Origin: Fastidiosipila sp.
GTDB lineage: Bacteria; Bacillota; Clostridia; Saccharofermentanales; DTU023
Reading direction: 5' to 3'
Length of the DNA: 64,000 nt
Assembly: GCA_012511175.1 (NCBI GenBank)
Contig: JAAZGO010000010.1
Span: forward strand, 69,563 to 133,562
A program made the position numbers and the translations under genes. How positions within the stretch are numbered: position 1 is the first letter of the stretch; every line of letters begins with the position of its first letter. Under the pieces are notes generated by a model, which saw only the letters and a program-made list of their open reading frames with translations, was not told the DNA's origin and searched no databases. Below are positions 1-61,409 of this stretch, one piece after another.

Positions 1-1717
1 CCCGATGCATCAGGATCTGGGGAGTGAGCCGGACCAGGCTTCCCCGATCGATCAGCAGGGACAAAATCTGCGCCCGGTCAACGCGCTTGCCCGCTTTAAG
101 TGGAAGCTGGCCGGGATCGGGGGGGGAATAGCCCGCCCGCAGGAAGGCTTCTTCCATCTCTTCGGCGGCTTCCACTTCTTCGCTGGAAAGCGAAACCGTG
201 TAGCCGTGAAGGGAAACCAGTCCCTTGGATACGTCAAGGATCTGCCGGTCACAGAGCCGGTCGATGACAAGATCGGACAGATGGATTTCTGTGCGCGGCA
301 TAAGCCGGGTTCTCAATTCTTCACGTCGCATGCCCTGTTCAAGCGGGCGCCGGCCATGAAAATCGCCAAGGAGGGCCGCAGCTTTCTTCCCAAGCGTTTC
401 CAGCGCTTCGCTGCTGACCGCGACAGCCTGATTCAGAAGGACAACTGAACCATCTGCAAGCAGGCCTTCGAGCAGGACATCAGCTTCTTCGGCCCTGATC
501 CCTGCCTTGTAGAAGGCTGTCTCCAGAGAAGCCAGCCTGTCGCTCCCCAGACCGATCGCCAGACGGAGGCGGGCTGACCGGTCGCTGCCCGCCATGATTT
601 CAAATTCTTCCTGGGTGGTCTCCCGCATGCGCCGCCTCCTGGCCGGAAGCGGGTCAACGATGACGCCGCCCCCCACCGTTTCAAGGGGTGAGTAAAAACG
701 GATGACAAAACGGTCGCCATATTTGGCAAAGACCTCCTCTTCAGGCCAGAGCTGGGCAGGCCCTTCATCCCCCGCTTCCAGAAGGTCGCGGTCAAGCAGC
801 ACGACACGGGCCAGCATTTCACGCGCACCGAGGAAGAGGTGGACGCGCATCTTATTGGTTATGGGGAAGCGCGTGCCGGGGAGCGCCGTCAGGGAGACAT
901 CGAACCGCCGGCTCCCCTGGAGGCTGCCAGGCGCTGTCAGCGTGTCTCCCCGTGTCAGATCATCTTTTTTGATTCCCGTCAGATTGAGGGCGACACGCTG
1001 GCCGGGCCAAGCGGTATCCACCGTCTTTTCGTGGACCTGGATGCCCCGGACGCGGGCGACTTGGTGCCCGGGGATGATTTCCACCTGGCTGCCCATCCGG
1101 ATGATCCCCTCGATGAGGGTGCCGGTTACGATGGTTCCGAAACCGCCAAGTGAAAAAACGCGATCAATGGGCAGCCGGAAGGGAAGGCTGTCTTTGGTAT
1201 GACCGCTGACATCGATTAATCCGAACAAGCTTGCCCGGAGGGCCTCAATGCCCTCTCCTGATACGCTGGACGTCCTGATGACGGGCGCGTCCTCCAGGAA
1301 AGTACCCCGGACCAAGTCTTTGAGATCCTCCTCGACAAGTTCAATTAATTCCTCGTCGGCCAGGTCACACTTGGTCAACGCGATGACACCGCGGGGAATG
1401 CCGAGGAGGGACAGGATCCCGAGGTGCTCACGTGTCTGCGGCATCACTCCCTCGTCAGCAGCAACGACCAGAAGCGCCAGGTCAATCCCCCCCGCCCCCG
1501 CCAGCATATTGCTGACAAACTTTTCATGTCCTGGAACATCGATGATGCCCGATCGCGAGCCATCGGGAAGGTCGAGCCAGGTGAAGCCCAGCTCGATGGT
1601 GATGCCCCTCTCTTTCTCCTCTGCCAGGCGGTCGGGGTCGCGGCCGGTCAAGGCGAGGATCAGGGAAGACTTGCCGTGGTCGACATGGCCGGCTGTGCCA
1701 ATAATGACATGCTTCAT
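1..1717 (-). CDS. selB: selenocysteine-specific translation elongation factor SelB (C-terminus cut by window edge)
   Basis: Absent from ORF track because it runs off nt 1. Hand translation of minus strand from ATG at 1717: MKHVIIGTAGHVDHGKSSLILALTG...IIDVPGHEKFVSNM...ALTKCDL (GTPase G1/G3/G4), then EF-Tu-like domain II (FGTIVTGTL) and long C-terminal tail; open to nt 1. ATG overlaps selA stop (ATGA 1714-1717). Confidence 0.9.
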   Translation of the reverse strand, partial: MKHVIIGTAGHVDHGKSSLILALTGRDPDRLAEEKERGITIELGFTWLDLPDGSRSGIIDVPGHEKFVSNMLAGAGGIDLALLVVAADEGVMPQTREHLGILSLLGIPRGVIALTKCDLADEELIELVEEDLKDLVRGTFLEDAPVIRTSSVSGEGIEALRASLFGLIDVSGHTKDSLPFRLPIDRVFSLGGFGTIVTGTLIEGIIRMGSQVEIIPGHQVARVRGIQVHEKTVDTAWPGQRVALNLTGIKKDDLTRGDTLTAPGSLQGSRRFDVSLTALPGTRFPITNKMRVHLFLGAREMLARVVLLDRDLLEAGDEGPAQLWPEEEVFAKYGDRFVIRFYSPLETVGGGVIVDPLPARRRRMRETTQEEFEIMAGSDRSARLRLAIGLGSDRLASLETAFYKAGIRAEEADVLLEGLLADGSVVLLNQAVAVSSEALETLGKKAAALLGDFHGRRPLEQGMRREELRTRLMPRTEIHLSDLVIDRLCDRQILDVSKGLVSLHGYTVSLSSEEVEAAEEMEEAFLRAGYSPPDPGQLPLKAGKRVDRAQILSLLIDRGSLVRLTPQILMHR

Positions 1718-3177
1718 GGCAGATCCGTCTCTTCGCTGAACGCGCGGGCCAGGGCGGAAAGGAGCAGCCGTTCCTCCTCCCCGGAAAGGGTTCGCAAGTC
1801 GAACAGGAGGGTATCAAGTGTGGTGCGGCAGAGAATGGGAGGGTCAAAGGCCCGCAGGTTCTGTTCCAGTGAGGAGATTGACCGTGTGCCGGATCTGACC
1901 GCCAGGGCCCAGGAGTGCAAGGGTATTTCCGGCGCCGACCCTCCCCCCATGATGATCTCGGAAGGGATGGCTTCTGCCATGATTCCGTGCCCCGAGAGAG
2001 ACAGAGCGGCTTCTTCCGTTCGCTGGCGGAGCGAATCGTTGTTGTAAAGGACTGAAACAAGCAGGGGGATACGCTCTTTTGCCCGGTCGGGATCCAGGTA
2101 GAGTGCCAAGGTCGCCTCAAGGGCAGCAAGAGTCATCTTGTCACAGCGAAAGGCCCGCATCAAGGGGTGAGCGGTCATTTTCCCCACCAGGTCAGCCCGG
2201 CCCATGAGGATGCCGGCCTGAGGACCTCCCAGGAGCTTGTCACCGGAAAAACAGATCAGGTCCGCGCCGGAGGCAAGGGCTCCACGGACAGTCGGTTCAT
2301 CAGGAAGCAGGGCCGACAGTTCCTCTGAAACAAGGCCGCTCCCCAAGTCATAAATCAAGGGGATCCCATGGCAGCGGGCCAGCTGTGAGAGCTCCGTATC
2401 GCTGACGTCCTCGGTGAAACCTGAAATCCGGAAGTTGCTGCGGTGAACTTTTAGTAGGGCTGCGGTCGAATCACTGATGGCGCGCTCATAGTCGGCCAGG
2501 CGGGTTTTATTGGTGGTGCCAACCTCCCGGAGGATGGCGCCGCTCTCCTCCATGATTTCAGGAACCCTGAATTTCCCCCCGATTTCCACCAGTTCGCCGC
2601 GGGAAACAAGGACCTCCCGGCCCCGGCACAAAGCTGATAGGGCCAGCATGACGGCAGCCGCATTGTTGTTGACCACTGTTGCGGCCTCAACATCAAACAG
2701 GCGGCAGAGCAGGGTTTCCAGGGGAGCTGTTCGTTGACCGCGTCTGTTTTCTGTAAGATCAAACTCCAGCGAGGCATAACCTTCGCTGCAGCGCTGGACG
2801 GCTGCAAGGGCCTCTTTTGCGAGGGGTGCCCGGCCGAGATTGGTGTGGAGGATGGCACCGGTGGCGTTGATGACTTTCCTGATCCCGGGTTTTGATTCGG
2901 TTTCAATTTTCAAAAGAATGGCCCGGAGGAGGACCTCTTCGGACAGCAAGATACTCCCGGCTGCCTGGCAATCTGCCCCAGCTGCTTTTTCAATGTAGGC
3001 AGCGTCAGCAAGGGGATCATCCGCCTTTTTTGTGAGAAAATGGCGTGCGGCCTCGAGGATCCCGCGCACGGCTTCCCTTACCGGATGATAGCCGTTCGAT
3101 TCCCTTGCGGCATCAAGGCGTGAATCACGCAGCAGTTGATCTACTTTCGGCAGGTCACGTGGATTTTCAATGATCAT
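1714..3177 (-). CDS. selA: L-seryl-tRNA(Sec) selenium transferase SelA
   Basis: ORF 1714..3213; SelA-like throughout (INATGAILHTNLGRAP, KVHRSNF, FSGDKLLGGPQAG). Start trimmed to ATG 3177 (MIIENPRDLPKVDQLLRD), which is preceded by GTGAGGAGG RBS. Confidence 0.93.
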   Translation of the reverse strand: MIIENPRDLPKVDQLLRDSRLDAARESNGYHPVREAVRGILEAARHFLTKKADDPLADAAYIEKAAGADCQAAGSILLSEEVLLRAILLKIETESKPGIRKVINATGAILHTNLGRAPLAKEALAAVQRCSEGYASLEFDLTENRRGQRTAPLETLLCRLFDVEAATVVNNNAAAVMLALSALCRGREVLVSRGELVEIGGKFRVPEIMEESGAILREVGTTNKTRLADYERAISDSTAALLKVHRSNFRISGFTEDVSDTELSQLARCHGIPLIYDLGSGLVSEELSALLPDEPTVRGALASGADLICFSGDKLLGGPQAGILMGRADLVGKMTAHPLMRAFRCDKMTLAALEATLALYLDPDRAKERIPLLVSVLYNNDSLRQRTEEAALSLSGHGIMAEAIPSEIIMGGGSAPEIPLHSWALAVRSGTRSISSLEQNLRAFDPPILCRTTLDTLLFDLRTLSGEEERLLLSALARAFSEETDLP

Positions 3178-3211
3178 CCTTTTGGCCTCCTCACCTGAGA
3201 GTCTCAAGATC

Positions 3212-3333
3212 ATCTTACCAAAAGGGAGTGGTAGAATAGTGCCGAATCAGCGGCGATCGCCGCGGCAGACAGAAGGGATGCCGGTCATGCGAAACAAACT
3301 GAAAAAAATCGTCCGGTCCTGGGTTTCTTTCCT
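3212..3333. repeat. left copy of 122-bp direct repeat (duplicated upstream region + first codons of the ATP-grasp gene)
   Basis: Hand-aligned base by base with 15348-15469: identical except one position (3328 t vs 15464 a). Contains the same TGgTAGAAT -10-like element and the MPVMRNKLKKIVRSWVSF coding start, here running into a stop at 3361. Confidence 0.9.
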
Positions 3334-3373
3334 CCCGACTTGTGAAGCAGTTCTAAGTTAACAGACCCACCGG

Positions 3374-4457
3374 ATGTCTAAATCGCCCGCCATTCGGGCT
3401 GCGATCCTTCAGATGCGCAGCTTTTTTGACAGCCAGGGCTTGCCTTTGGCCTATCATCTTTTCCCCGGCAACTCAAGCGAAAAATTATCCTTGTATCCTC
3501 TCAAGAACCGGATCCGGGAAGATTACAACCGGAGCCGCGTTGTGGTCGCCGCCGACAAGAGAATGAATTGCGGGGACAACATCAACAAGCAGCTGGCCCG
3601 GCAACGGTTACATCCACAGCCAGTCCATCTGCGGAGCCGACCGGGAATTTCAGCAGCTTGTCCTGAACAAGGAGGCCACCTAAAGAGGGGGAGTCTGGCA
3701 AGGCCAAATCGAGGATCTATCCGAAAAAGACTACCTTAACCAACCGGCATAGGAAAAGGAAAACTCTCCGTCCATCAAAAGCAGGTGGTTTTTTACAGCC
3801 AGGACTACGCGGACAAAGCGGCCTATAAGCGGGCCCGCGTTCTTGCCAAAGCCAGGCGGCTTTTGAAGAGCCCACAACTTCTCATGTGAGCCATCAACAA
3901 AGGTGCCGCAAGCTACATCAAGAGCCTTGAGTAAATCGAGGATGGTGAAATAGTCGAACCCGAGACCCTGCTTTATCTTGAATAAGAAAAAGATTAAACA
4001 GGAGGCCTGGCAGGACGGCCACTACGCCATCGTGACAAGTGAGCTCGATCTTGACGACAGCGAAGCGATCCGACTTAACCACGATTTTAGGAAGATCGAG
4101 GAGATATTCAAGATCTCCAAGTCGGAATTGAGGACACGGCCAGTCCACGTGTCTTTGGAATCATATATTGAGGTGCATTTTCTGACCTGCTTTGTGGCGC
4201 TTGTCCTTTTAAGAACTCTGGAGCTCAAACTGAACCGGGCCGGACTCGAAGGCGCGGGTGGTCCGCAGGTTTTTCAAAGCTTCGGTTTGCCGGACTTGTT
4301 TCGAAAATTCACCTGCAGCCATGTCCCGGAAAACTGCTACACCTTCCATTTCACTGGCAACAACATCAAGGAGATCGAACAAGCACTAGAATTGGAACTT
4401 GGCCGCAAGCACAGGAAGCGAGGTGAGATCCGGTCCGTGATCGCCGATGCCGATTAG
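3374..4457 (+). pseudogene. IS1634/IS4-superfamily DDE transposase, 5'-truncated and frameshifted
   Basis: Two ORF fragments in different frames (3374-3739, 3978-4457). C-terminal part (DGHYAIVTSELDLDDSEAI...KIEEIFKISKSELRTRPVHV...HFLTCFVALVLLRTLE) matches the conserved C-terminus of IS1634-type transposases. The N-terminal half is missing. Confidence 0.8.
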
Positions 4458-4588
4458 TAGTTTTTGCATAGTACATTTGCTTGTGTTTAGTTTCGAAGGT
4501 CAGGATTCTAGCAACGAACAGCCGATTCCAGTTACTTTGCCATTGGATCGGATTTATTGTGCTATCTCCCAAATACGGCGGTTTCTAG

Positions 4589-4617
4589 TTGACATTTTTT
4601 TAGCATAAGTCTAGACT
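4589..4617 (+). promoter_or_regulatory. candidate sigma-A promoter for the aminotransferase-dhaKL operon
   Basis: TTGACA (4589-4594), 17-nt spacer, TAGACT (4612-4617), about 90 nt upstream of the ATG at 4708. Confidence 0.4.
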
Positions 4618-4707
4618 TAACGGCATAATTGCGGTATTCAGCAGAGAGCGTTGCTGCGGGTACTCGACATGACTAATGTTGTTACCAAACACAAAGAGGA
4701 GGTCACT

Positions 4708-6156
4708 ATGCCGAACATCGAGAATCTTAGGGGTGTTGCTTTCAAGCAAAGAGAGAAATTGCGGGTTTCAAAGGAGCAAATGCTCCAACGCATTGAGGAT
4801 TCCCCTTTCGGCCCAAAAGGGAAGGAATTGGCAAGGCAAGCCTTAGAGAATGAGTCCTACGGTGCGATGGGTTGGCTTTTATGGAGTGTGCCTCCCATCA
4901 TTGAATACGCCAAAGGCTCTGTCATCTATGACGTCGATGGCAAAGACTATATTGATTTGCTGTCCGGTTTTTCGGTAAGTCAGTTTGGTAACTGTCAAGA
5001 AGAATTGACCAAGGTTATTCAGGATCAAGCAACAAAGCTTACCCATTATTTTGATCTATTTCATCCTGAAAGAGTTAAGTTAGGCAAAAAGCTGAGAGAA
5101 CATTCAGGCATTAGCCAGGACACCAAGGTGGTTTTTGGCGTTACCGGATCAGACGGGATTGAGCTCGCCGTTAGAGCAGCTCGTTACTACACGGGCAGGC
5201 AGTATATCCTTGTGGCACATGGGGATTACCACGGGGTTACTTACGGAACAATGGGTTTGACAGGGAAAGGTGGAATGCAACCGTATTTTTATCCTGTAGC
5301 GCCCGATCCTCATGTTGGACAATTCTATTTCCCGCATGAATATCGTTCGAGGGATGAAGAATATTCAGGCTTTGGAATGGAATCGATCAGGGATCTCGAA
5401 AGAGCACTTGAAGGTAAGGAAACGCCTTGGGCGGACGGGTATAGTGGCATTTGCAATGTTGCGGCGATTCTTGTTGAGCCTTTCCAAAGTTCAGCGGGGT
5501 ATTATGTCCCTCCCAAAGCATATTTACAGGAACTTCGCAGAATATGTGACAAATTTGGTATTTTGCTGATTACAGACGAAATTCAAGCCGGACTTGGAAG
5601 GAGTGGAAAGCTTTGGGCCTACCAATATTCGGATATCGAGCCCGATATGATTGTTACTTCCAAGGCGCTGGGTGGTGGATTGCCCATTTCAGCAGTTATC
5701 GCTAAAAGCGAGATTCTCACAGAATGGGGTCCCGGTGCACACGTGTCAACGCAGGCTGGAAACGTGCTGGCATGTGCAGCTGGCAACTATGTAATGGATG
5801 TTGTGACGGATCCGGCGTTCCTGGAAGAAGTCAATCGCATCGGTGATCGTTTCTATGAAGGATGGAAGGTTCTACAGGATAAACATCCGAGCATTGGGTA
5901 TATCGATCATATGGGACTGTATCTATCAATTGAGTATGTCAAAGACAGAAAAACGAAGGAACCTGCTGCAGATTTCACAACTTTTGTCCGCGATGAGGGT
6001 GTTGCAGAAGGTCTCGCATTTGAAAAAGGTGGTTACTGGCACAACAGAACACAAATGATTCCAGCTTTAAACATGCCGGATGATGTTATGGACGAAGCTT
6101 TCAGGCGTTTTGACAGGGTGTTGACAAAGGGCGAGAAATTATTTGGCATCGGATAA
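4708..6156 (+). CDS. class III (omega-type) pyridoxal-phosphate aminotransferase
   Basis: ORF 4651..6156 trimmed to ATG 4708 behind AGAGGAGG. Class III motifs: DEIQAGLGRSGKLWA and the PLP lysine context MIVTSKALGGGLP. Confidence 0.85.
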   Translation: MPNIENLRGVAFKQREKLRVSKEQMLQRIEDSPFGPKGKELARQALENESYGAMGWLLWSVPPIIEYAKGSVIYDVDGKDYIDLLSGFSVSQFGNCQEELTKVIQDQATKLTHYFDLFHPERVKLGKKLREHSGISQDTKVVFGVTGSDGIELAVRAARYYTGRQYILVAHGDYHGVTYGTMGLTGKGGMQPYFYPVAPDPHVGQFYFPHEYRSRDEEYSGFGMESIRDLERALEGKETPWADGYSGICNVAAILVEPFQSSAGYYVPPKAYLQELRRICDKFGILLITDEIQAGLGRSGKLWAYQYSDIEPDMIVTSKALGGGLPISAVIAKSEILTEWGPGAHVSTQAGNVLACAAGNYVMDVVTDPAFLEEVNRIGDRFYEGWKVLQDKHPSIGYIDHMGLYLSIEYVKDRKTKEPAADFTTFVRDEGVAEGLAFEKGGYWHNRTQMIPALNMPDDVMDEAFRRFDRVLTKGEKLFGIG

Positions 6157-6172
6157 ATTTGAGGCATGTATA

Positions 6173-6203
6173 CTCGGCCAGTCACCAGTGGTGACTGGCC
6201 GAG
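6173..6203 (+). promoter_or_regulatory. intercistronic perfect stem-loop (14-bp stem, 3-nt loop)
   Basis: CTCGGCCAGTCACC-agt-GGTGACTGGCCGAG between aminotransferase stop (6156) and dhaK start (6241). No U-tract follows. Confidence 0.6.
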
Positions 6204-6240
6204 TGAATCTGGGGATTTGAGTGGAGGAGGTTTGATACGA

Positions 6241-7251
6241 ATGAAGAAATTTATGAATAAAGCTGAAGATTTTGTCGACGATATGCTAAAAGGCATATAT
6301 GCAGCACATCCAGATGAAGTGACCATGGTGGGGGATGATTTGCGATGCCTGGTGACCATGAGGCCAAAGGAGAATAAAGTTGCCATTGTAACGGGAGGTG
6401 GCTCAGGTCATCTGCCCCTATTTTTAGGCTATGTGGGTAATGGTCTTTTACACGGTTGTGCTGTTGGCGGGGTGTTCCAATCCCCGAGCGCCGAACAAGT
6501 TTTAGAGGTAACGAAGGCGGCGCATCAAGGCCAGGGTGTCCTGTACATCTATGGCAACTACACGGGCGATATCATAAATTTTGACATGGCTGGTGAAATG
6601 GCTGAAATGGAAGGTATCGTCACCAAAACTGTCCTCGGTGCAGACGATGTCGCGAGTGCGCCTGCGGGAGAGGAAGGTAAGCGGCGGGGGGTTGCTGGCA
6701 TATTCTTCGTCTATAAGGTGGCTGGAGCAAAAGCAAATGAAGGCGCTACACTCGATGAAGTGTATCGCGTTGCGGACAAGGCAAGTTCAAATGTAAGAAC
6801 CATGGGAGTAGCACTTACGCCCTGTATTGTTCCTGAAGTTGGGAAACCATCCTTTACTCTTGGTGATGATGAGATGGAAATTGGGATGGGCATCCATGGA
6901 GAACCCGGTGTCCGTCGGGGGAAACTCGAATCGGCCGACAAAGTTGTCAAGGAGATGCTGACCCCTATCATGGATGATTTGGGTCTTGAGTCTGGTGATG
7001 AGGTGTCGATATTGATGAATGGCCTGGGGGCTACCTGTAAAGAAGAATTGTACATCTGTTTTTCCAAGGTAGCAGAGATGCTCCGTGACCGTGGCATTAA
7101 ACAGCATTCTGTCTATGTCGGCGAGTATGCGACATCCATGGAAATGATGGGCTTCTCCATATCGGTCTTCAAGCTCGATGAAGAGCTAAAGAGCTTGCTG
7201 GTTAAGCCTGCCAACACTCCCTTCATTACCTTGGCTGGTCTCAAAGATTAG
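6241..7251 (+). CDS. dhaK: dihydroxyacetone kinase-family subunit DhaK (substrate-binding)
   Basis: ORF 6166..7251 trimmed to ATG 6241 (MKKFMNKAEDFVDDMLKG) behind GGAGGAGG. Dak1 hallmarks: VAIVTGGGSGHLPLF and YGNYTGDIINFDMA. Confidence 0.85.
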   Translation: MKKFMNKAEDFVDDMLKGIYAAHPDEVTMVGDDLRCLVTMRPKENKVAIVTGGGSGHLPLFLGYVGNGLLHGCAVGGVFQSPSAEQVLEVTKAAHQGQGVLYIYGNYTGDIINFDMAGEMAEMEGIVTKTVLGADDVASAPAGEEGKRRGVAGIFFVYKVAGAKANEGATLDEVYRVADKASSNVRTMGVALTPCIVPEVGKPSFTLGDDEMEIGMGIHGEPGVRRGKLESADKVVKEMLTPIMDDLGLESGDEVSILMNGLGATCKEELYICFSKVAEMLRDRGIKQHSVYVGEYATSMEMMGFSISVFKLDEELKSLLVKPANTPFITLAGLKD

Positions 7252-7271
7252 AAGGTGGGAGAAAAACAATA

Positions 7272-7907
7272 ATGAGAATTTTCACCAGGGATGATCTGAC
7301 GAGGGCCGTAGTCATCACAAGCACCTTGATGGATGAGAATAAGTTCAGACTCATCGAGCTGGACAGCCAGATCGGTGACGCTGATCTGGGGTTGACAATG
7401 AGCAAAGGTTTTGCGGCTGCAAAAACTTGCGCACTGGAGCTTGAGGATGATGACATCTCCACATCCTTCAAAAAGATTGGGCTTGCCATAGCGAAAGCCG
7501 CACCTTCAACGATGGGCTCTCTGATGGCAACTGCCTTTATTGGTGTAGGCAAGGAAATAGGTCAAAAGGAATACTTGGATTTTTCTGACGTGGGGCTCAT
7601 GTATATGTCGATGGCCAGGTCCATCCAGGAACGTGGCAAAGCGAAGGAAGGGGACAAAACGCTTCTTGACGTACTTTTTCCCGTTGCGCGTGCCGTACAA
7701 TCTTCCAGGAGCCAGGATATTTGCGAACTGATGGAAATTGCTCATAAGGTATCGAAGGAGAGTCTTGAACGTACGAAAAACTTAATGAGCCAGCACGGCA
7801 AGGCAGCTGTATTTCGAGAAAAAACCATTGGGCTGGAAGACCCGGGAGGAGCAGCAGCGGTCTTGTTAATTGAAGGATTCTACAGAGCTTGTATCGGAGA
7901 TGAATGA
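7272..7907 (+). CDS. dhaL: dihydroxyacetone kinase-family subunit DhaL (nucleotide-binding, Dak2 domain)
   Basis: 211 aa. Dak2 motifs: LDSQIGDADLGLTM and GDKTLLDVLFP. Confidence 0.85.
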   Translation: MRIFTRDDLTRAVVITSTLMDENKFRLIELDSQIGDADLGLTMSKGFAAAKTCALELEDDDISTSFKKIGLAIAKAAPSTMGSLMATAFIGVGKEIGQKEYLDFSDVGLMYMSMARSIQERGKAKEGDKTLLDVLFPVARAVQSSRSQDICELMEIAHKVSKESLERTKNLMSQHGKAAVFREKTIGLEDPGGAAAVLLIEGFYRACIGDE

Positions 7908-8389
7908 TTATGATTATTAAGGCACAGGAATTGACGGTTGAATCATTCGCCCCTTATGGATCGTTTATAAATCCAATGAACGGATATGAGGGAGATGAAA
8001 CAATCGAGTTCACTCCCGATCGCATGATGTATCAAGTTGGCGGGCGAATTGGAAGCATGTCCAGTATCCGCATCAAGTGGCGGCCCATGGAGTTTGGAGT
8101 AACTGAATATCACGATGAATGCGAAGAAGTGTTTGGCGGTTTTGGCTGTGAGGTGGTCTTCCACGTTGGCCTTGTGTCCAGAACAAACCAACCGATTCCG
8201 GAAAGCTTTGCAGTTTTTCGGCTTCCAGCGGGGTGGTATGCACGCGTAAAACGCCGGGTGCTTCATCATGCCGGGTTCGTTGTAGGTAAAGATGACGTGG
8301 CTGCAGGAGTGGTTCTGCTGTCCCCTTCTGCCTACACGATTGACTGTCACGTTATTGAGCTGGAACAGCCGATTGGTATTGAAGTTTAA
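7904..8389 (+). CDS. ureidoglycolate lyase (AllA)-family cupin-like protein, function unknown here
   Basis: 161 aa. N-terminus QELTVESFAPYGSFINP resembles the AllA/ureidoglycolate lyase family signature. Start overlaps dhaL stop (ATGA), suggesting translational coupling. Confidence 0.6.
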   Translation: MIMIIKAQELTVESFAPYGSFINPMNGYEGDETIEFTPDRMMYQVGGRIGSMSSIRIKWRPMEFGVTEYHDECEEVFGGFGCEVVFHVGLVSRTNQPIPESFAVFRLPAGWYARVKRRVLHHAGFVVGKDDVAAGVVLLSPSAYTIDCHVIELEQPIGIEV

Positions 8390-8514
8390 ACAATATTATT
8401 TTTTTCTTGAGTTGCTGAGAATTAATCGTTATGGGCCGGTTTTCGGGACCGGAAACTGAAATAGTGGTTTACGCTCTAAGGGCGTAATAGAAGAAAGGCA
8501 CAAGGGAGGTTTCT

Positions 8515-9573
8515 ATGAAGAAGTCTAGGCTGCAAATATTCATGGTGTTGATCGTGACACTCATATTTGCGATGGGGTTGGTATTAACTGGATGCAGCAT
8601 GGAAGGAGATAAATCTGGTAACGCTCCTCCTGCTGCGGAAGACACTAAGAAGCCCGAATCTCCTTCAGGTGGAGAAAGTGGGGAAGGGAAGAAGATCGGT
8701 TTTTCGATTGCGATGCTAGCCGGCAGCCCCTTCTGGCAGATCATTTCAGATGAACTGGAAAGAGGATTCAAAGAATTGGGCTATGAGTTCGTTGTTCTCG
8801 ATGCTCAGGGAGATGCGGCAAAGCAGGCTTCAGACGTTGAAGATCTGATTGCGCAAAAGGTCGATATAATTCTTGTAAATCCGTATGACAGTGATGCGAT
8901 TGTGCCGGTCACACTGTCTGCACGAGATGCCGGTATCCCGGTGATGGCGGTGGATATCCCTGTGGCTGAGGCCGGATACAGCATAGCAACTTGTATTTGT
9001 GACAACGTCATGCTTGGGTACCAATTGGGCGAGTATGCGGCGGATAAGTTTAATACGCCTGAGGTTAAAGTGGTCGTAATCAGTGGCTATCCGAACGGTA
9101 TCGACAGTCGTCAGAGGCGTCACGGTTTCATTGAAGGCTTCCACGCAAAACAGTTGGAGAAATTTGCGCAAACGGGCTTGAGGATTGTTCACCATGGTTG
9201 GGGTGATTATGCACGTGAACCTGCAAATAAAACCATGGAAGACGCCATCACACGGACAAACGGTGACTTTGACATCGTATACTGCGAAAACGATGATATG
9301 GCCATCGGTGCCCTCCGCGCAATGGAAAGCGCCAACATCACAGGCAAGATGATTTTGGGTGTTGATGGTCTTAAAGAGATGTACGAACTGATACGTGACG
9401 GCTATACAACCGCTACAGGACGAAATTCACCGGTTGAGTTGGCAGCGGTATCCGTCCAAGCTACCCATGATTATCTGAACGGCAAGGAAATTCCTGAAAT
9501 CATTTTTACGACGCCGACCGTTGTGGAGAAGAAAAACATAGATGAATTCTACGATCCTGATTCAATCTTTTAG
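8515..9573 (+). CDS. sugar/polyol ABC transporter substrate-binding lipoprotein (ribose-type, PBP family 1)
   Basis: Signal peptide with lipobox LTGC, a Pro/Glu/Ser linker, then an RbsB-like body (GFSIAMLAGSPFW, DIILVNPYDSDA, VDGLKE). GGGAGG RBS. Confidence 0.85.
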   Translation: MKKSRLQIFMVLIVTLIFAMGLVLTGCSMEGDKSGNAPPAAEDTKKPESPSGGESGEGKKIGFSIAMLAGSPFWQIISDELERGFKELGYEFVVLDAQGDAAKQASDVEDLIAQKVDIILVNPYDSDAIVPVTLSARDAGIPVMAVDIPVAEAGYSIATCICDNVMLGYQLGEYAADKFNTPEVKVVVISGYPNGIDSRQRRHGFIEGFHAKQLEKFAQTGLRIVHHGWGDYAREPANKTMEDAITRTNGDFDIVYCENDDMAIGALRAMESANITGKMILGVDGLKEMYELIRDGYTTATGRNSPVELAAVSVQATHDYLNGKEIPEIIFTTPTVVEKKNIDEFYDPDSIF

Positions 9574-9600
9574 AACCAGGTGAGTAGAAACGTTTATGTG

Positions 9601-9637
9601 ATGGGCGAGACGATGATGTCATCATCGTTTCGCCCAT
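9601..9637 (+). promoter_or_regulatory. long stem-loop just after the binding-protein gene
   Basis: ATGGGCGAGACGATGATG / CATCATCGTTTCGCCCAT is near-perfectly complementary (one G-U). No clear U-tract follows. It resembles the mRNA-stabilising hairpins common after ABC binding-protein genes. Confidence 0.55.
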
Positions 9638-9907
9638 ATCATGATGTTAGTTCGTGAGATCATCGGTTGAAACACATCGCATCCGTTTCTGCTCTCGATT
9701 CAGCCGGGTCGAATGGGGTTCTTCCGTTTGAAGCGTTCAAATGGATCTCGCATGAGGGTATTCTTAATTGCATAGCGGCGTTCTTCTGAAAGAGAAGCAC
9801 TGACGGGGTCCCATCTATTTGGCATCACCTCGATTGTTAACCAACTGATATTGACTTCGAGGAGAGACAACAAAAGGAAAATTTTTGGTAAATGGAGTGA
9901 GTTTAGA

Positions 9908-11455
9908 ATGGGTGCTTTTAATCCAATTGTTGAAAAAACTGAAACAACAGAAACCCACGAAACTGACAACGTTATTCTTCGGGTCACGGGCTTGGTTAAA
10001 GATTTTCCGGGTGTTAGAGCGTTGGATAATGTCTCTTTTTCCCTGCGCCGGGGCGAGATCCACGGTTTGGTGGGTGAAAACGGAGCGGGCAAAACTACGT
10101 TATTGAAGATTCTCTCTGGCGTTTATGCTGCTGACAATGGTGAAATTGAATTGGAGGGGTCAAAAGTTCATCTGAAAAATCCGATCGATGCACAGAGCAA
10201 AGGTATTTGTATGGAATACCAGGAGAAAACTCTGTTCCCCAACTTAAGCGTTGCCGAAAATATCTGTGTAGGCAATTTAGGTTTGTATTCTGGCAGCCGT
10301 TCAATGGTTTCCTGGAAAAAAATCCACACAATCGCAAATGAAGTTCTCAATTGGTTGAATTTCGACATCGATACAACCTTGAATATTCGAGATTTGTCAC
10401 CTCAGTTGCAGCAAATAGTTCAAATAGCGCGGGCGATTGCACTCAAGGGAAAGATCATCATCTTGGACGAACCTACAGCTGCTATTTCTTTTAGCGAAGT
10501 CGACAATCTATTTGCTACGCTGAGAAGGTTAAAAGATGAAGGCTACTCGATCATCTATGTTTCTCACCATCTGAAAGAGGTCTTCCGAATAACTGACAGG
10601 GTTACGATCCTGAAGGATGGTCAGGGTGTCGGAACCTTCGAAACGGCAGCTCTTGACGAAAAAGCGATGACTCGTCTGATGATTGGGAGAGACATTATCC
10701 GCGAACGCCAAAGCAGAGACTTCTCAACAAGTGAGGTGGTATTTGAAACCAAATCGCTTACCACAGCGGATGAATCGATTTCTGACGTTTCAGTTAAAGT
10801 TCGAAAAGGAGAAATCCTGGGGATTGCAGGATTGTTAGGAAGTGGCAAAGACATCTTAGCCAGGGTCATCGCGGGATCAACGCCAATAAAATCGGGAGAA
10901 GTAATTCTAAACGGGGAAAGTTTTGTTCCAAAACGTCCAAAACAAGTGATCAACAAAGGCATAACAGTATTGCCGGCAGAAAGAACTCTTGAGGGCTTGA
11001 TCTTAAGGCAGTCGCTGAATTTTAACATGACACTTTCGTCTTTCAAGAGATTTTCCAAATTCGGCATCATGAATGCAAGAAAGGATTTCAGATTGGCCGA
11101 GAAAGCTGCCTCCGATGTCAATCTAAAATACGTCACACTGAGACAGCAGGCACTGTCTTTGTCAGGAGGCAACCAGCAAAGAGTCATGATTGCGCGTGCC
11201 CTTTTGACGAATGCAAAGATTATCGTTTTCAATGAACCCACGCAAGGTGTTGATGTGGGCGCAAAGCAGGAGATCCACAAACTGATCCGTTCCTATGTTT
11301 CACGGGGAGGGTCCGTGATTATCATCTCATCGGAACTTCCTGAGTTGCTGAGTACAAGTGATAACATTGCCGTTATGAGCAGGGGGAGAATCGTCGCCAA
11401 TTACACTGGCGACGAGGCTTCGGAGGAAACATTGCTTAAGCAAATGATTGGCTGA
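9908..11455 (+). CDS. sugar ABC transporter ATP-binding protein (duplicated ATPase, RbsA/MglA type)
   Basis: ORF 9851..11455 trimmed to ATG 9908. Two nucleotide-binding domains: Walker A GENGAGKTT, signature LSGGNQQRV and Walker B IIILDEPT/IVFNEPT. Confidence 0.9.
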   Translation: MGAFNPIVEKTETTETHETDNVILRVTGLVKDFPGVRALDNVSFSLRRGEIHGLVGENGAGKTTLLKILSGVYAADNGEIELEGSKVHLKNPIDAQSKGICMEYQEKTLFPNLSVAENICVGNLGLYSGSRSMVSWKKIHTIANEVLNWLNFDIDTTLNIRDLSPQLQQIVQIARAIALKGKIIILDEPTAAISFSEVDNLFATLRRLKDEGYSIIYVSHHLKEVFRITDRVTILKDGQGVGTFETAALDEKAMTRLMIGRDIIRERQSRDFSTSEVVFETKSLTTADESISDVSVKVRKGEILGIAGLLGSGKDILARVIAGSTPIKSGEVILNGESFVPKRPKQVINKGITVLPAERTLEGLILRQSLNFNMTLSSFKRFSKFGIMNARKDFRLAEKAASDVNLKYVTLRQQALSLSGGNQQRVMIARALLTNAKIIVFNEPTQGVDVGAKQEIHKLIRSYVSRGGSVIIISSELPELLSTSDNIAVMSRGRIVANYTGDEASEETLLKQMIG

Positions 11456-11510
11456 GGCATGAAGTGATGAACGTATCACATCTAAGAATGGAATTTGGAG
11501 ATAAAAGATT

Positions 11511-12488
11511 ATGGTGAAAAGTAATGCCGGCAGAACACTGGATAGGCAGAGACTTGGCCACCTTGCCAAAGAATATTTCCTGGTTATCGTTGTTGCCTTG
11601 TTAATAGTTGTATTCAGTTTTTTGAACCAAAATTTTTTGACAGGTGCCAATATTCAAAATATGTTAAGGCAAGCGGCAGCAAATGTGATCATCAGTATCG
11701 GGATGCTGGCTGTTGTTTTAACAGGGGGCATTGATCTTTCTGTCGGGGCAACCGCTGGTTTAGCTGGGGTGTTGGTGGCGGGCTTTATTAGAGACGGCAT
11801 GGGTGCTCTCAGCGCTTCCTTATTGGTACTTGTTATCGGAATTCTGGTTGGTACGTTCACCGGATTTTTGGTTGTGTACATGGGTCTGGCACCTTACATA
11901 GCCTCGATGTCCATGATGCTGATTGTGACAGGAATAAAACTCCTTTACAGTCACTCACTTTCAATTTCGATAGACATGAGCCAGAGTGGTTTTTTGATGG
12001 TCGGCCGTGGGAATTTTGCAAGCATCCCTATACCCATTTGGATGATGTTTGTTATGACTTTGATATTCCAATTCGTTATGTCGAAAACGACTTATGGTAG
12101 AAGTCTCTACGCTCTCGGCGGCAATCCGGAAGCGGCTTACCTTGCGGGTATCAATAGCAAATTTATGACGATGTCCGTCTACGTAATAAGTGGGTTTTGC
12201 AGCTTTGTTGCAGGGATTATGCTTGCATCAAGGCTGGCATCTGGTTCCCCTTCGACGGGTACGGGTTTCGATACAAACGCGATTGCATCAGTCGTTATCG
12301 GTGGAGGAAGTCTTGCCGGAGGACGGGGGAAGCCCATGCTGGTTCTGTTTGGCGCGATGGTGATCGCAATGCTGAGTAATTTCCTTAACCTGATGGGTGT
12401 GCAGAATTACATTCAGAGAATAATCACGGGCGGAATCATTATTCTCGCTGTATTCATCTCGGAACGGACTGGCACCAAGAAGCGATAA
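11511..12488 (+). CDS. sugar ABC transporter permease (RbsC/BPD type, single permease)
   Basis: 325 aa, about 9-10 hydrophobic spans, with an RbsC-like GGIDLSVGA motif. Confidence 0.88.
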   Translation: MVKSNAGRTLDRQRLGHLAKEYFLVIVVALLIVVFSFLNQNFLTGANIQNMLRQAAANVIISIGMLAVVLTGGIDLSVGATAGLAGVLVAGFIRDGMGALSASLLVLVIGILVGTFTGFLVVYMGLAPYIASMSMMLIVTGIKLLYSHSLSISIDMSQSGFLMVGRGNFASIPIPIWMMFVMTLIFQFVMSKTTYGRSLYALGGNPEAAYLAGINSKFMTMSVYVISGFCSFVAGIMLASRLASGSPSTGTGFDTNAIASVVIGGGSLAGGRGKPMLVLFGAMVIAMLSNFLNLMGVQNYIQRIITGGIIILAVFISERTGTKKR

Positions 12489-12524
12489 ACCTTGTCTCAC
12501 CGAACGGAAGAATGTGAGGGAAAA

Positions 12525-13598
12525 ATGGAAATGATCTTCGGAGCCCCCCAGTTTTACGTGCAGGGACCGGGCATTATTGCAAAGACAGGGAAATATCTGA
12601 CAGACCTCCAGCTTGATGGGAAACTCTTGCTCATGATTGATGTGGGGGTGAAAGAGGTGGTTAAGCCAATGTTGGTTTCTATCGAGGAGGCATCGATAGA
12701 CTACGATGTGCTGGACTTTGCTGATCAATACACCCTGAAAAAAATCGCATTAATCGCCGATGAGTCCAAACACAAGCAGTATTGCGCTGTTGTGGGCGTT
12801 GGTGGTGGCAAGCCGATAGATGCTTCCAAACGGGTTGGTTGGTCCCTGGGCATTCCTTTCTTATCGGTTCCTACGAGTATCGCCACAGATGCTGCAACGA
12901 GTAGAACATCGGTCGCCTATACAGATGATGGCGAGTTGGTTGAGGACAAGACGATTTTCAACCCTGCTGGAATTTTCGTCGATTCCGCCATTATTGTTCG
13001 GGCACCCATTCATCTATTCGGAGCTGGGATGGCCGATGCGCTATCCAAGAGATATGAATACAAACTGTCGTTAGCCTGTGGATTCCCAAATTGGTATGAC
13101 GCCTCTTCAGCCTATTTTATTGACGCAATTTCCAAAGAAATGCACGAACTGCTTTTGCGTAATGGTAGATATTTGAAGGAATGTTTTAGGGAGGGCGTGC
13201 TTAATGAGACAGTTGAACGGAGTATCACCGCCATGCTGCTCATGAGTCGTTTGGTGTGGGATTCAGGTGGTTTGCGGGGAGCTCATGACTTATTCGAGGA
13301 ATTCAATGATGCAGGTTATGGTAAGGATCACATGCATGGTGAAATAGTTGGCTATTTCGATCTTGTCCAACTATTGGTAGAACAGTACCCAGACAATGAG
13401 TTTTACGAACTCTACACTCTTTACCGTGATTTGGGTATCCCACTCAAAATTAGCGACTTTGGATTTCCTATCGGGGACGCTGATCAACTCGATGAGTTGA
13501 CGACGCGCTTTTCCAAGAAATGTGGTGAGTTCAACTGGCATCCAGGTGATGACGCGTTTAAAGATGCTTTACTTAAGCTCGAAAAGATGCAACTTTAA
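12525..13598 (+). CDS. iron-containing alcohol dehydrogenase, glycerol dehydrogenase (GldA)-like
   Basis: ORF 12492..13598 trimmed to ATG 12525 behind GTGAGGG. Contains VGVGGGKPIDASK (NAD-binding loop) and PTSIATDAATS, typical of the GldA/Fe-ADH family. Confidence 0.8.
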   Translation: MEMIFGAPQFYVQGPGIIAKTGKYLTDLQLDGKLLLMIDVGVKEVVKPMLVSIEEASIDYDVLDFADQYTLKKIALIADESKHKQYCAVVGVGGGKPIDASKRVGWSLGIPFLSVPTSIATDAATSRTSVAYTDDGELVEDKTIFNPAGIFVDSAIIVRAPIHLFGAGMADALSKRYEYKLSLACGFPNWYDASSAYFIDAISKEMHELLLRNGRYLKECFREGVLNETVERSITAMLLMSRLVWDSGGLRGAHDLFEEFNDAGYGKDHMHGEIVGYFDLVQLLVEQYPDNEFYELYTLYRDLGIPLKISDFGFPIGDADQLDELTTRFSKKCGEFNWHPGDDAFKDALLKLEKMQL

Positions 13599-13641
13599 AA
13601 AAGCAGACATATGATAATCGTTTGATATCGGAGATAATTCT

Positions 13642-14427
13642 ATGGAAAATGCAATCTGGAATCTATTCGATTTGACTGATAAAAACGCTGTCGTGACAGG
13701 GGCATCCGGTGGAATTGGTTATGCCTGCGCTATTGGCCTGGCCCAAGCGGGCGCAAATGTTGTTGCCCACTATAATACCAACAAAAAAACTGCGGATAAA
13801 CTTGTAGCAGAGATTAGAAAAATGGGAAAAGAAGCCTTCGCGGTGCAAGCAGATGTTTCCAATTACGAAGACGTTAACCGCATGGCAAAAGATATCGATG
13901 AGATGTGGGGAAAGGTTGACATATTGTTCAATAATGCCGGAATTGGGCTAACCGTCGATCCCGAAAAGAGCACAAAGGAAGAGTGGTTGAAGGTAATCGA
14001 CACGAATCTTAATGGCGTATTCTACTGCGCACAAGCTTTCGGTAAATTGATGATCCGGGATGGAGGTGGAGCCATTATCAATATGGGTTCCATGTCCGCA
14101 GAAATTATCAATAGACCCGAAGAGGTCTCCTACAGCACTTCAAAAGCCGGCGTCCACCTGATGACTAAAGGGCTTGCGGCATGCTGGGCAAAATATAAAA
14201 TACGTGTCAATGCTATAGCTCCGGGGTATATTGCAACTGAGATGTCACTTCCCATGATGCGCAGTGAGCCTGACTGGGTCAAAACGAATTGGACCGATTG
14301 GACGCCGCAACGACGGATTGCTGAACCTGAAGAACTGGTGGGCATGGTTGTTTATCTCGCGTCCGAAGCGTCGAGTTTCGTCACGGGTTCTTGTTTGATC
14401 ATCGACGGGGGATTCACGGTGTATTAA
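13642..14427 (+). CDS. SDR-family oxidoreductase (gluconate-5-dehydrogenase/3-oxoacyl reductase-like)
   Basis: 261 aa with TGASGGIGYA, NNAG and the YSTSKAG catalytic motif. Confidence 0.88.
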   Translation: MENAIWNLFDLTDKNAVVTGASGGIGYACAIGLAQAGANVVAHYNTNKKTADKLVAEIRKMGKEAFAVQADVSNYEDVNRMAKDIDEMWGKVDILFNNAGIGLTVDPEKSTKEEWLKVIDTNLNGVFYCAQAFGKLMIRDGGGAIINMGSMSAEIINRPEEVSYSTSKAGVHLMTKGLAACWAKYKIRVNAIAPGYIATEMSLPMMRSEPDWVKTNWTDWTPQRRIAEPEELVGMVVYLASEASSFVTGSCLIIDGGFTVY

Positions 14428-14511
14428 CGGGCAACCATTCTTTGGACAATTACAATTATGGCTTTCACAATTTCGAGTAATGTATGTTGAATGCGCCTGA
14501 ATGTATCCGAT

Positions 14512-15347
14512 TAAGTTTTCAAAATAAATCCGTGACGCGTCAACAAGACTGACAAAAGCGACAAGTTGATTGCCTGTCTCAATTTGGATAAAGCAGCATA
14601 AGTTTCGCGCAAATGAATTAGGAGGACATGACTCCCTCTACTCACTTGGAAAAATTGGTTTTGGAAAAAACAAACCAAGGAGAAAAAGGAACCAAGTCCG
14701 AAAAAAATATTCAGTTGAACGAAGGAATCATCAGAGAAGAGCTGGGCGAGATGGTGCATCAAAGTGTTGAAGATACTTTGAATACATTACCGGAAGAAGA
14801 GCCGACTGACTGACCAACGTCAAATGCAACAAAAGAATGGTCATACGAAAGATTCTTGACAGTACTCTTGCATCCATGAGAGATTTCGCTCTCCGAAGGC
14901 AGTCATGGACGCCATTTGTTACCATAGAACAACTGGGGAGGAGCACTGAAACTGCCAACAAACCTGAACATACTACAGGGAACAGCTGTGCAGAGGGATT
15001 GGCAGGTCATATCCTGGGCACCAGGTTCAAAATCCGTGAGAGCTGGTTCTGTCAGGGAGCGGCCGTGATGGTCGTTTCACGCGCCTTCGTGACGAAAGCA
15101 GGGGAGTTGACATCACTGCTGATCGAAAAGACACAAAAATTGGCTGTAGCCAGTATCCAGGAGCTTTCGGCAAATTTTCGGGAATACAGGTGATGCGGGT
15201 CGCCCACGATAGCCCGAAGGACCAACAAACGGGAGACACCGCCCTACCGTTTACGAAAAGTGAACGCCGTTAACAGCTTGGGGAGATTCCATTGATTCTT
15301 ACTCTGAGCTACAACAACTTGACACGGCCCCAGTTGCAAAAGTCAGG
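14512..15347 (+). mobile_element. decayed IS256-family (mutator-type) insertion sequence with internal deletions
   Basis: Fragments across frames resemble IS256-type transposase N-terminal parts (VEDTLNTLPEEE, ERKDS, and an AICYHRTTGEEH block in the position of the usual AIIERYRRRE block), plus a possible C-terminal remnant. The two ends look like imperfect inverted repeats: 14516 AGTTTTCAAA...CCGTGACGCGTCAA versus the reverse complement of 15315-15345, ACTTTTGCAA...CCGTGTCAAG. Only about 830 bp remain, against more than 1.3 kb for intact family members. Confidence 0.7.
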
Positions 15348-15469
15348 ATCTTACCAAAAGGGAGTGGTAGAATAGTGCCGAATCAGCGGCGATCGCCGCG
15401 GCAGACAGAAGGGATGCCGGTCATGCGAAACAAACTGAAAAAAATCGTCCGGTCCTGGGTTTCATTCCT
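15348..15469. repeat. right copy of 122-bp direct repeat (native 5' region of the ATP-grasp gene)
   Basis: Identical to 3212-3333 except one base. It starts immediately after the IS256-like right end. Confidence 0.9.
15365..15373 (+). promoter_or_regulatory. extended -10-like element (TGgTAGAAT) for the ATP-grasp gene, duplicated at 3229-3237
   Basis: TG-n-TAGAAT lies about 50 nt upstream of ATG 15423. The -35 position falls on the repeat boundary and is weak in both copies. Confidence 0.3.
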
Positions 15470-16502
15470 GAATAAACGGGCGGATGCTTCCATGACCCGC
15501 GCCATGATCTGGTCGATCCGGTCGGGCAGCAGAAAGGAATTCAAGCACCGTCAGTGCAGCATAAGCCTTGAAGAAAAAAAGGCCATCCAATCGTACTGGG
15601 GCCGCTACACGAAACAAAATCGCCCTTTCTTTCAGGCTTTGTACGCTTGCATGCATGGCACCTTCGATGTCAGATACCTGCCTGACGACCTCTATTTGAC
15701 CCGCATGCTCCGGCATTTAAACGACCGGGAATACAGCGTCCTGACCAATAAATGCCTTCAGCCGCTTTTATTTGACTGCCGGCAGCCGGAAACGGTTTTC
15801 ATGCGGATTAATGGATCCTACTGCGATGCGGCCTACCGGCCCATCAGCAGGGAGGAGGCAATCGAACTTTTTCTTGAGAGCGGCAAGGCGGTTGTCAAGC
15901 CGGCTGTGCGTACGCACAGCGGCAGGGGCATTCAGTTTCATGCCGCCCGGAGCGCGGAGGAAGTCTCAGAATTTCTGGAGCACTGCTTTGGGCAAGTTCC
16001 AAGCTACATCGTACAAAAGGTGGTGAAGCAACACGCCGGCCTTGCAGCCATCCATGAGCCTTCAGTCAACTGCCTGCGTGTCATGACACTCTTGATTGAC
16101 GGCCGGGCCGTTGCTCTTTCAACAGTTTTGAAGATGGGCGCCGGCGGAAGCCAGCTGGACAACCTGGGATTCGGCGGCATCGTCTGCGGTGTCAGGGAAG
16201 ATGGCACCCTGAGGGAAGTGGCCTTTTCGGCTAATGGCGACCGCTTCTACCAACACCCTCAGGGCTTTGACTTCAGCGGCTATCATGTCCCCTCCTATGA
16301 GGCGGTCAAAAAATTGGCTGTGAGCATGGCGGAACGCGTTCCCTACACGCGGCTGATTGCCTGGGATATCGCCGTGGCCGAGGACGGTGAACCGGTCCTG
16401 ATCGAATACAACGATATCGGGGAGCTGGGATTTATGCAATATGCCAACGGTCCCCTCTTCGGTGACTATACAGACAGGATTCTGTCAGAAATCTTTCTTT
16501 AG
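15423..16502 (+). CDS. ATP-grasp family protein (sugar-transfer-associated ATP-grasp type)
   Basis: ORF 15375..16502. ATG 15423 is preferred (AGAAGGG sits 9 nt upstream). The C-terminal IAWDIAVAEDGEPVLIEYN is typical of this ATP-grasp subfamily. Start choice is uncertain (15375, 15414 or 15423). Confidence 0.75.
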   Translation: MRNKLKKIVRSWVSFLNKRADASMTRAMIWSIRSGSRKEFKHRQCSISLEEKKAIQSYWGRYTKQNRPFFQALYACMHGTFDVRYLPDDLYLTRMLRHLNDREYSVLTNKCLQPLLFDCRQPETVFMRINGSYCDAAYRPISREEAIELFLESGKAVVKPAVRTHSGRGIQFHAARSAEEVSEFLEHCFGQVPSYIVQKVVKQHAGLAAIHEPSVNCLRVMTLLIDGRAVALSTVLKMGAGGSQLDNLGFGGIVCGVREDGTLREVAFSANGDRFYQHPQGFDFSGYHVPSYEAVKKLAVSMAERVPYTRLIAWDIAVAEDGEPVLIEYNDIGELGFMQYANGPLFGDYTDRILSEIFL

Positions 16503-17546
16503 TCAGATCACCCGGATGGCCACCCCCTGCCAGGGGGTCAGGCGTCCGATCGGCCAGGCTTTTTCACCCAATCGGCTCAGGGCGTCCAGATAGGGGTCGA
16601 CCTGATCTTCCCGCATAGCCAGCAGGAGACCGCCGGACGTCTGCGGGTCGAACATCAGATCCGTCAGAGCCAGCGGGATCTCTCCATCAAAGCGAACCCG
16701 GTCGCCAACGTAACGCCTGTTGCGGTAAGTTCCGCCCGGCAGCATGCCCTCTTTGGACATGTCCAGGGCACCGGGCAGCAGGGGAACGGACCGGCTGTCG
16801 ATTTCAACGGTCACTTTCCGGTCTCTCCCCGCCATTTCCCTCAGATGTCCCAGAAGGCCGAAACCCGTGATGTCAGTCGATGCCGATACATCGAGGCCGA
16901 CGGAAGCTTCAAAGGCATAGCGGTTGAGTTTCGCCATGGTGTCAATCATGCGCTGGACCGTCTCACCGTCCAGCAGGCCCGCCTTGGCGCCGGTTGCCAG
17001 AGCCCCGGTCCCCAGCGGTTTTGTCAGGACAAGGATATGGCCAGGATGGGGGGTATCATTTCGCCGGATCTGATCAGGGTGGCAGAGCCCCATGACAGAC
17101 AGGCCAAACTTGGGCTCTTCATCTTCGATGCTGTGGCCGCCCGCGACTGTGACACCGGCTTCCATGCATTTATCGGCCCCGCCCTCGAGAATCCTCCGAA
17201 CGACGGCCAAGTCAAGGCAGCTCGAAAAACAGAGGAGATTCAGGGCTGTTTTGGGGACCGCTCCCATAGCGTAGACGTCACTCAGGGCATTGGCCGCGGC
17301 GATCCGGCCGTAATCGAAGGGGTCGTCAACGATGGGCGGAAAGAAATCCACCGTCTGGATGATGGCGATATCATCAGAAACAAGGTAGACACAGGCATCA
17401 TCCTCGGTCTCATAACCGACCAGGAGGCGGTCATCTTTTTTGATCGGCAAGCCGGTCAGGAGCTCGGAAAGGACCCCCGGTCCCACTTTGGCCCCTCAGC
17501 CGCCGGCGCTGGTCAGCTGAGTCAGCCGGATTTCCTGGTCAGACAT
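16503..17546 (-). CDS. selD: selenide, water dikinase SelD, selenocysteine-containing (in-frame UGA at 17496-17498)
   Basis: The track ORF (16503..17486) starts at an internal GTG. Reading upstream through the TGA gives MSDQEIRLTQLTSAGG-U-GAKVGPGVLSEL from ATG 17546 behind AAGGAGGTG. U aligns with the catalytic Cys/Sec of the SelD glycine-rich loop. Confidence 0.9.
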
Positions 17547-60340: not shown

Positions 60341-60372
60341 TATAACCCCAAATAAACAGGAGGAAAAGAACA

Positions 60373-61405: not shown

Positions 61406-61409
61406 GACC

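Follow-up and report, generated by a model that had tools for sequence, protein, structure and literature searches.

A 12-kb operon-bearing island flanked by a 122-bp direct repeat in an uncultured Clostridia lineage: probable long target-site duplication by an IS1634-family element

Two insertion sequences (ISs), IS1634 and IS1549, are bordered by direct repeats of variable length (8–514 bp) that arise through a mechanism not known, and the ends of the IS1634 family share the consensus C-----YT (PMC2266710, a 2008 survey of IS4-related families). Here, a comparable locus is described from Fastidiosipila sp., in a 64,000-nt stretch of DNA (GenBank assembly GCA_012511175.1, contig JAAZGO010000010.1, positions 69,563–133,562; hereafter the window, whose own coordinates are used throughout). 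A foreign island of some 12 kb lies between selA and an ATP-grasp gene, and is bracketed by two copies of a 122-bp direct repeat. It was considered likely that this repeat is a long target-site duplication left by one transposition event of an IS1634-family element, because duplications of such length are documented for IS1634 and IS1549, and because IS1634-type ends abut the repeat. In the light of these same two facts, there is no support for the view taken in an initial annotation of this DNA, that 122 bp exceeds any transposase duplication and that another mechanism must be sought. Read in this way, the locus is a fresh instance of a known, mechanistically unexplained behaviour of the IS1634 family, and is unusual for the 12-kb operon that lies between a defective IS and a solo end.

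The repeat and its host flanks comprised the following features:

1714–3177, reverse strand: selA (L-seryl-tRNA(Sec) selenium transferase), the left host flank (Pfam SelA, E = 1.6e-132; GGAGG ribosome-binding site before the ATG at 3177)
3212–3333, no strand: left copy of the 122-bp repeat (alignment and repeat search; sequence conserved in sister lineages)
3287–3361, forward strand: chimeric open reading frame (ORF) of 24 codons, in which the ATP-grasp N-terminus is fused to IS sequence, MRNKLKKIVRSWVSFLPTCEAVLS*, with its stop at 3361 (read from the sequence)
15348–15469, no strand: right copy of the 122-bp repeat, from which the ATP-grasp gene takes its working promoter and its 5' end (alignment and repeat search)
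15423–16502, forward strand: ATP-grasp gene (ATPgrasp_ST), the right host flank, intact (Pfam PF14397, E = 1.1e-38)

The two copies were identical at 121 of 122 positions, both by alignment of the region and by an independent repeat search, and their longest exact match was 116 nt. The lone mismatch (3328 T vs 15464 A) was synonymous, falling at the third position of a Ser codon when read in the ATP-grasp frame. The repeat search revealed no further long dispersed repeat of this kind within the window. The start of the ATP-grasp gene was placed at the ATG at 15423, because its homologues are 359 aa in length, and the repeat therefore spans 75 nt of upstream DNA plus 15.7 codons of the gene. 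The left copy contains codons 1–15.7 as well as the conserved extended -10 element TGGTAGAAT at 3229–3237, which is oriented into the dead IS; its outer edge lies 35 nt from the selA start, on the upstream side. Since the duplication takes in the divergent promoter region common to both genes, as well as the first ATP-grasp codons, selA and the ATP-grasp gene both remain intact, although one of the joints falls within the 16th codon of the latter. Between the copies lay 12,014 bp (3334–15347) with an overall G+C content of 46%; in sliding windows G+C was 0.43–0.49 here, against 0.55–0.61 in the flanks. The same disparity was evident at third codon positions (GC3), which gave 0.44–0.52 for the nine cargo genes of the island and 0.63–0.70 for selA, the ATP-grasp gene, selD and their neighbours. 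In these respects the initial annotation proved accurate: it had placed a 122-bp repeat with one differing base around an AT-richer insertion, begun the left copy 35 nt upstream of the selA start, recognized the short chimeric ORF that stops at 3361, and predicted that each divergent gene would keep its own copy of the upstream region. It had put the duplicated part of the ATP-grasp gene at about 15–30 codons, according to the choice of start.

The island ends and the IS remnant at its left side were delimited as follows:

3334–3350, forward strand: left terminal inverted repeat (IRL), CCCGACTTGTGAAGCAG (inverted match to the right end of the island and to the right terminal inverted repeat (IRR) of two related IS copies, L105 and L106; family consensus)
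3334–4504, forward strand: defective IS1634-family element with both ends retained (NCBIfam NF033559 transpos_IS1634, E = 7e-12 and 2.8e-25; alignment to an IS1634-family transposase)
4488–4504, reverse strand: internal IRR of the defective IS, ...TTCGAAGGTCAGG, just past the transposase stop codon (13/16 against the end at 15347; the best of 193 scanned positions)
15331–15347, reverse strand: right terminal inverted repeat of the island, a solo IS1634-type IRR, ...CAGTTGCAAAAGTCAGG (terminal 11 nt the same as the IRR of L105 and L106)
End pattern of this IS clade: CCYGACTT...AAGTCAGG

The repeat copies abutted the island ends at 3334 and 15347 exactly, with no gap. The island begins with CCCGACTTGTGAAGC and finishes with the reverse complement of CCTGACTTTTGCAAC, both of which are terminal inverted repeats of the IS1634 family. 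Reading inwards, the end at 3334 (CCCGACTT...), the reverse complement of that at 15347 (CCTGACTT...) and the reverse complement of that at 4504 (CCTGACCT...) all fit the family consensus. The IRL matched the reverse complement of 15331–15347 (CCTGACTTTTGCAACTG) at 12 of 17 positions (empirical P = 1.4e-4), the positions compared having been fixed beforehand by the repeat boundaries. Related IS copies, L105 and L106, were retrieved through a 159-aa remnant; these were 95.6% identical to each other up to ...TAGCTTCAAAAGTCAGG, beyond which their flanks differed entirely, and this point therefore marks the true right end of the IS. Their terminal 11 bases, ...CAAAAGTCAGG, were the same as the 11 bases preceding 15348, and the reverse complement of their IRR (CCTGACTTTTGAAGC) agreed with 3334–3348 at 13 of 15 positions (P about 2e-6 binomial, 1e-5 empirical).

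The transposase gene itself is in ruins. The region 3374–4457 matched positions 166–456 of the 483 in the NF033559 profile, below the curated cutoff for full-length members, and was aligned by tblastn to residues 225–510 of a 583-aa transposase annotated as IS1634-family. The gene has lost about 224 codons from its N-terminal part, and the remainder is interrupted by several stops and a frameshift. This defective IS was found at no fewer than two other flanks. L105 matched the window at 100% identity throughout selA and the left repeat, with a YfbR-like gene that is absent from the window at its right flank, and L106 was situated elsewhere; such a distribution fits a non-autonomous element that would have been copied in trans. 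Searching plasmids by tblastn with the IS remnant produced matches of 46% identity or less, and a scan of viral contigs for the IRR produced none. The defective copies were also mosaic: when L105 (1059–2287) and L106 (1–1129) were compared with 3334–4504, blocks of 100% identity alternated with blocks of approximately 80–85%, and mismatches were clustered at 3817–3850 and 4208–4455. This pattern suggests gene conversion or recombination among copies, or else chimeric assembly.

The right side of the island was of a different character:

14628–14870, forward strand: 5' part of a transposase gene from the IS256 (Mutator-type) family (over 52 aa, 50% identical to a PF00872 protein at its N-terminus)
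14871–15330, no strand: non-coding filler that separates the IS256 fragment from the terminal repeat (no Pfam or NCBIfam match in forward frames)

A second complete IS copy was absent here; there was just the IRR of 11–17 nt, without an IS1634 body, and the right-hand 920 bp bore no similarity to that body past the terminal bases. No match to Pfam or NCBIfam was obtained in any forward frame of 14430–15350. The IS256-family homology was limited to about 50 N-terminal codons, with none further on, and there was no IS256-type end at 15347, so an IS256-family element was ruled out at this boundary. The initial annotation had the right repeat copy abut an IS256-like right end; it is instead an IS1634-type IRR that forms the terminus, and the nearby IS256 sequence is a 5' fragment of roughly 250 bp.

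An uninterrupted version of the locus, with selA beside the ATP-grasp gene and one copy of the repeat as the initial annotation had anticipated, was observed in three sister lineages (contigs L100, L101 and L102–L104), whose ATP-grasp homologues were 82%, 82% and 72% identical to the protein encoded in the window. The order there was addB, selB, selA (reverse strand), a 109-nt spacer, ATP-grasp (forward strand), selD, an IF-2B-like gene and DAGK, which is the synteny of the window without the island; when 3178–3333 was joined to 15470 onward, the spacer was likewise 109 nt. Each relative (L100–L104) had a single homologue of the repeat, and among them a block including the extended -10 element, AAGATCATCTTACC(A)AAAGGGAGTGGTAGAATA, was nearly invariant. 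A metagenome scan for an empty allele of the same species (selA flank, 110–134 nt, ATP-grasp flank) returned 0 matches, and had little power, given that a control 40-mer of the repeat found one contig only.

These observations can be accommodated by a single step. The transposed unit would be 3334–15347, comprising the defective IS1634-family element, a nine-gene operon, the IS256-family scrap and the solo IRR at 15347. A related transposase, supplied in trans, would have recognized the outermost IRL and IRR and joined these ends to the target 122 bp from each other, at 3211/3212 and 3333/3334 (empty-site coordinates), the two joinings being perhaps staggered or uncoupled; repair synthesis would then have copied the 122-bp interval onto both sides. 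The transposase was probably provided in trans because the resident gene is badly decayed, while the duplication has accumulated one substitution. No short target duplications (5–9 bp) were apparent by eye, whether beside the island ends or around the IS256 fragment, and there was no microhomology at the junctions. Both putative target joints fall within short palindromes, as judged by eye, though this could be chance: AAGATC/ATCTT at left (3206–3216) and, imperfectly, ATTCCT/GAAT at right (15464–15473), where the slash denotes the joint.

Several points weigh against this interpretation. Members of the IS1634 family usually make target duplications of 5–6 bp (PMC2266710), and the other copies of this clade that were retrieved (L105 and L106) are partial; for the clade itself, long duplication is a putative habit. 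An intact IS1634-family transposase was absent from the window, and all database matches obtained with the remnant were fragments of 159–224 aa. The IS is heavily decayed, yet the repeat copies differ by one base, which requires either that an already-dead element was mobilized, or that selection and gene conversion have acted on the repeat; selection on a repeat that bears promoters may have slowed its divergence. The right end is solo (approximately 11–17 nt, with no IS body), and may be either a surrogate end or all that is left of a second IS copy. Finally, the 40 nt at 3334–3373 could conceivably be diverged coding sequence, instead of an IRL followed by a deletion scar.

Other origins for the repeat were evaluated against the same evidence. 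The source is evidently a metagenome-derived genome, and several assemblies stop at the repeat edges (L007, L011, L017, L018), as might be expected if the repeat had been collapsed or wrongly joined in a metagenome contig. However, many contigs spanning either junction were found through exact-protein look-ups in anaerobic-digester and sewage metagenomes from several studies; these were 68–142 kb long and 100% identical to the window over 13–21 kb. They included SPAdes contigs and independent assemblies at k = 127 and k = 141, both above the longest exact match between the copies. Moreover, the one differing base distinguishes the copies, and a strain diverged by 0.4% (L107) shares the right junction. 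Misassembly, to which we attach next to no probability, is excluded by these independent assemblies. One contig (L011/L014, sample ERZ22827919) contained a right-type repeat followed by 3 nt of selA-side flank (ATC, not AGG). It hints, weakly, at an island-free allele within the same sample, or at recombination between the repeats; the copies could recombine to delete the island precisely, and these 3 nt are the lone sign of it. The same contig might be cited in favour of integration in the manner of Campbell, whereby a circle in which one 122-bp piece of host DNA already linked the IS ends underwent RecA-dependent recombination with the same piece in the chromosome; near-identity of the copies would be expected, and 122 bp is sufficient for homologous recombination. 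Nevertheless, this scheme leaves unexplained why homology ends precisely at IS1634-type inverted repeats on both sides, and it needs the host's 122 bp to have been loaded beforehand, in some unexplained way, between IRR and IRL. A circle of this sort would arise most simply if an island already in place, with its duplication, were excised, and the scheme was judged unlikely.

Insertion in two steps was thought to be similarly improbable. Here, the 1.2-kb defective IS would have inserted first, with the 122-bp duplication, and the cargo and distal IRR would have been added later at its right end, through recombination between IS copies or a second transposition. This agrees with the presence of the element's own IRR at 4504, with its occurrence at other loci without cargo (L105 and L106) and with the mosaic IS sequences, which suggest recombination among copies. 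But the later event would have to finish exactly at the old junction of IS and repeat, and recreate an IRR there; furthermore, no cargo-free strain with the arrangement selA, repeat, IS, repeat, ATP-grasp was seen, and the right flank of L105 is a YfbR-like gene and not the repeat. Where a genomic island integrates at the end of a gene and rebuilds it from a copy that it brings along, direct repeats of tens to hundreds of bp are left behind. On that general ground, the repeat could represent attL and attR, flanking an island that an integrase had inserted in the ATP-grasp gene at its 5' end; the initial annotation had listed site-specific integration as an option. However, no integrase or recombinase was present among the ORFs of at least 70 aa scanned in 3334–15347; the repeat is host sequence on both sides, with one base differing, and the ends are inverted repeats of the transposon type. 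This alternative, to which almost no probability was attached, is excluded by the gene content, and transposition with a long target-site duplication was preferred over each of these schemes.

The cargo carried by the island consisted of the following:

4589–4617, forward strand: promoter-like site of the cargo operon, TTGACA-17-TAGACT (consensus match only, 10/12 positions)
4708–14427, forward strand: nine cargo genes (Pfam, NCBIfam), specifying a class-III aminotransferase, DhaK, DhaL, a 161-aa protein, an RbsB-like binding protein, an ABC ATPase, a permease, a GldA-like Fe-alcohol dehydrogenase and an SDR protein

The count of nine genes is that given by the initial annotation. The 161-aa protein (7904–8389) had no family match. 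A homologous operon was identified in L108, where the aminotransferase was 79% identical and an alanine dehydrogenase was present in addition, while in the operon of L109 a TRAP transporter replaces the ABC system. The contigs bearing the nearest homologues of the cargo (P0028, P0029) were short and revealed little of what lies upstream. Thus, the cargo is a self-contained operon that occurs in other organisms. From its gene content it looks like an uncharacterized amine/polyol (sugar/amine) catabolic operon; as a guess, an amino-polyol might be deaminated to a ketose, which DhaKL would then phosphorylate. In several other samples (L003 1–1311, L004–L006, L099), otherwise identical sequence diverged at 4650/4651 into an IS481-like element, seen from one side, whose rve transposase is 386 aa long (NF033577, E = 6e-13). 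Strains apparently differ here by an IS inserted at 4650, beside the cargo promoter.

In the right flank, selD is a selenoprotein gene (16503–17546, reverse strand, ATG at 17546), with an in-frame TGA at 17496–17498 in the context SAGG-U-GAKVGPG; gene callers shorten it to 327 aa. Therefore, the island sits in the middle of a selenocysteine gene cluster composed of selB-selA, the ATP-grasp gene and selD. When a genome collection was queried with SelA, the nearest species representative was Clostridiales bacterium DTU023 (66% identity). This genome was rejected as an empty site, being too distant and lacking the ATP-grasp gene (gene order DAGK-IF2B-selD-YedE-selA-selB). All genes of its cluster are co-directional, and a YedE/Sulf_transp-like gene (L019 5068–6177) stands between selD and selA, in the place of the ATP-grasp gene here, which is therefore itself a lineage-specific replacement. 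Elsewhere in the window, 25890–27331 contained three to four tandem repeats of about 432–435 bp, 63–74% identical, each with ...GATACCCTGGAGGATGTGCT...; they probably encode the repeated domains of a large surface protein. Over 60001–64000, where the window ends on the right, G+C falls again to 0.49–0.51, and this is possibly another foreign segment.

As a long duplication, the locus provides a clean natural example beyond Mycoplasma and Mycobacterium, one for which the empty site is verified and the end sequences are exact, and in which such an event would have delivered an entire 12-kb catabolic operon. For annotation, it implies that flanking repeats of at least 100 bp are not evidence against transposition where IS1634-type ends occur. 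A broader proposal, which is doubtful at present, is that this IS1634 clade habitually joins its ends about 100 bp apart, even when the unit is 12 kb long, its transposase gene is dead and its distal end is minimal. If so, the duplication would be a built-in repair that restores promoters and gene starts on both sides, such that insertions into regulatory or 5'-coding DNA are tolerated, and the locus would offer a natural, sequence-defined system (IRL CCCGACTTGTGAAGC and IRR GCTTCAAAAGTCAGG) for the unexplained long and variable target duplications.

Among described elements, IS1634 and IS1549 are the nearest to the present case: they have the same transposase family (NF033559), the same end consensus and a long duplication, with 122 bp inside their reported range (PMC2266710). 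The present case differs in its host, an uncultured, high-GC Clostridia lineage from anaerobic digesters, and in its unit, which is 12 kb long with a nine-gene operon, a defective transposase gene of its own and a solo inverted repeat for a right end. Like integrase-borne islands with att repeats, it is a foreign island whose direct repeats restore the target gene, and which could be lost by recombination between them; unlike those, it has no integrase, ends in IS inverted repeats and is flanked by duplicated host DNA. The compound transposons Tn5 and Tn10 also place cargo between IS-derived inverted ends, and employ a DDE transposase from the wider IS4-related group. However, the island has one IS body and not two, its duplication is 122 bp as opposed to 9 bp, and the unit is not self-mobile. 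Units of the ISEcp1 or IS1247 style are similar in that one IS and a short, distal IRR-like sequence bound a larger segment carrying neighbouring genes. Surrogate-end behaviour is undocumented for the IS1634 family, however, and the distal end here is identical to a genuine IRR at 11 of 11 positions; therefore, it is possibly the relic of a second IS copy, and not a surrogate arising by chance.

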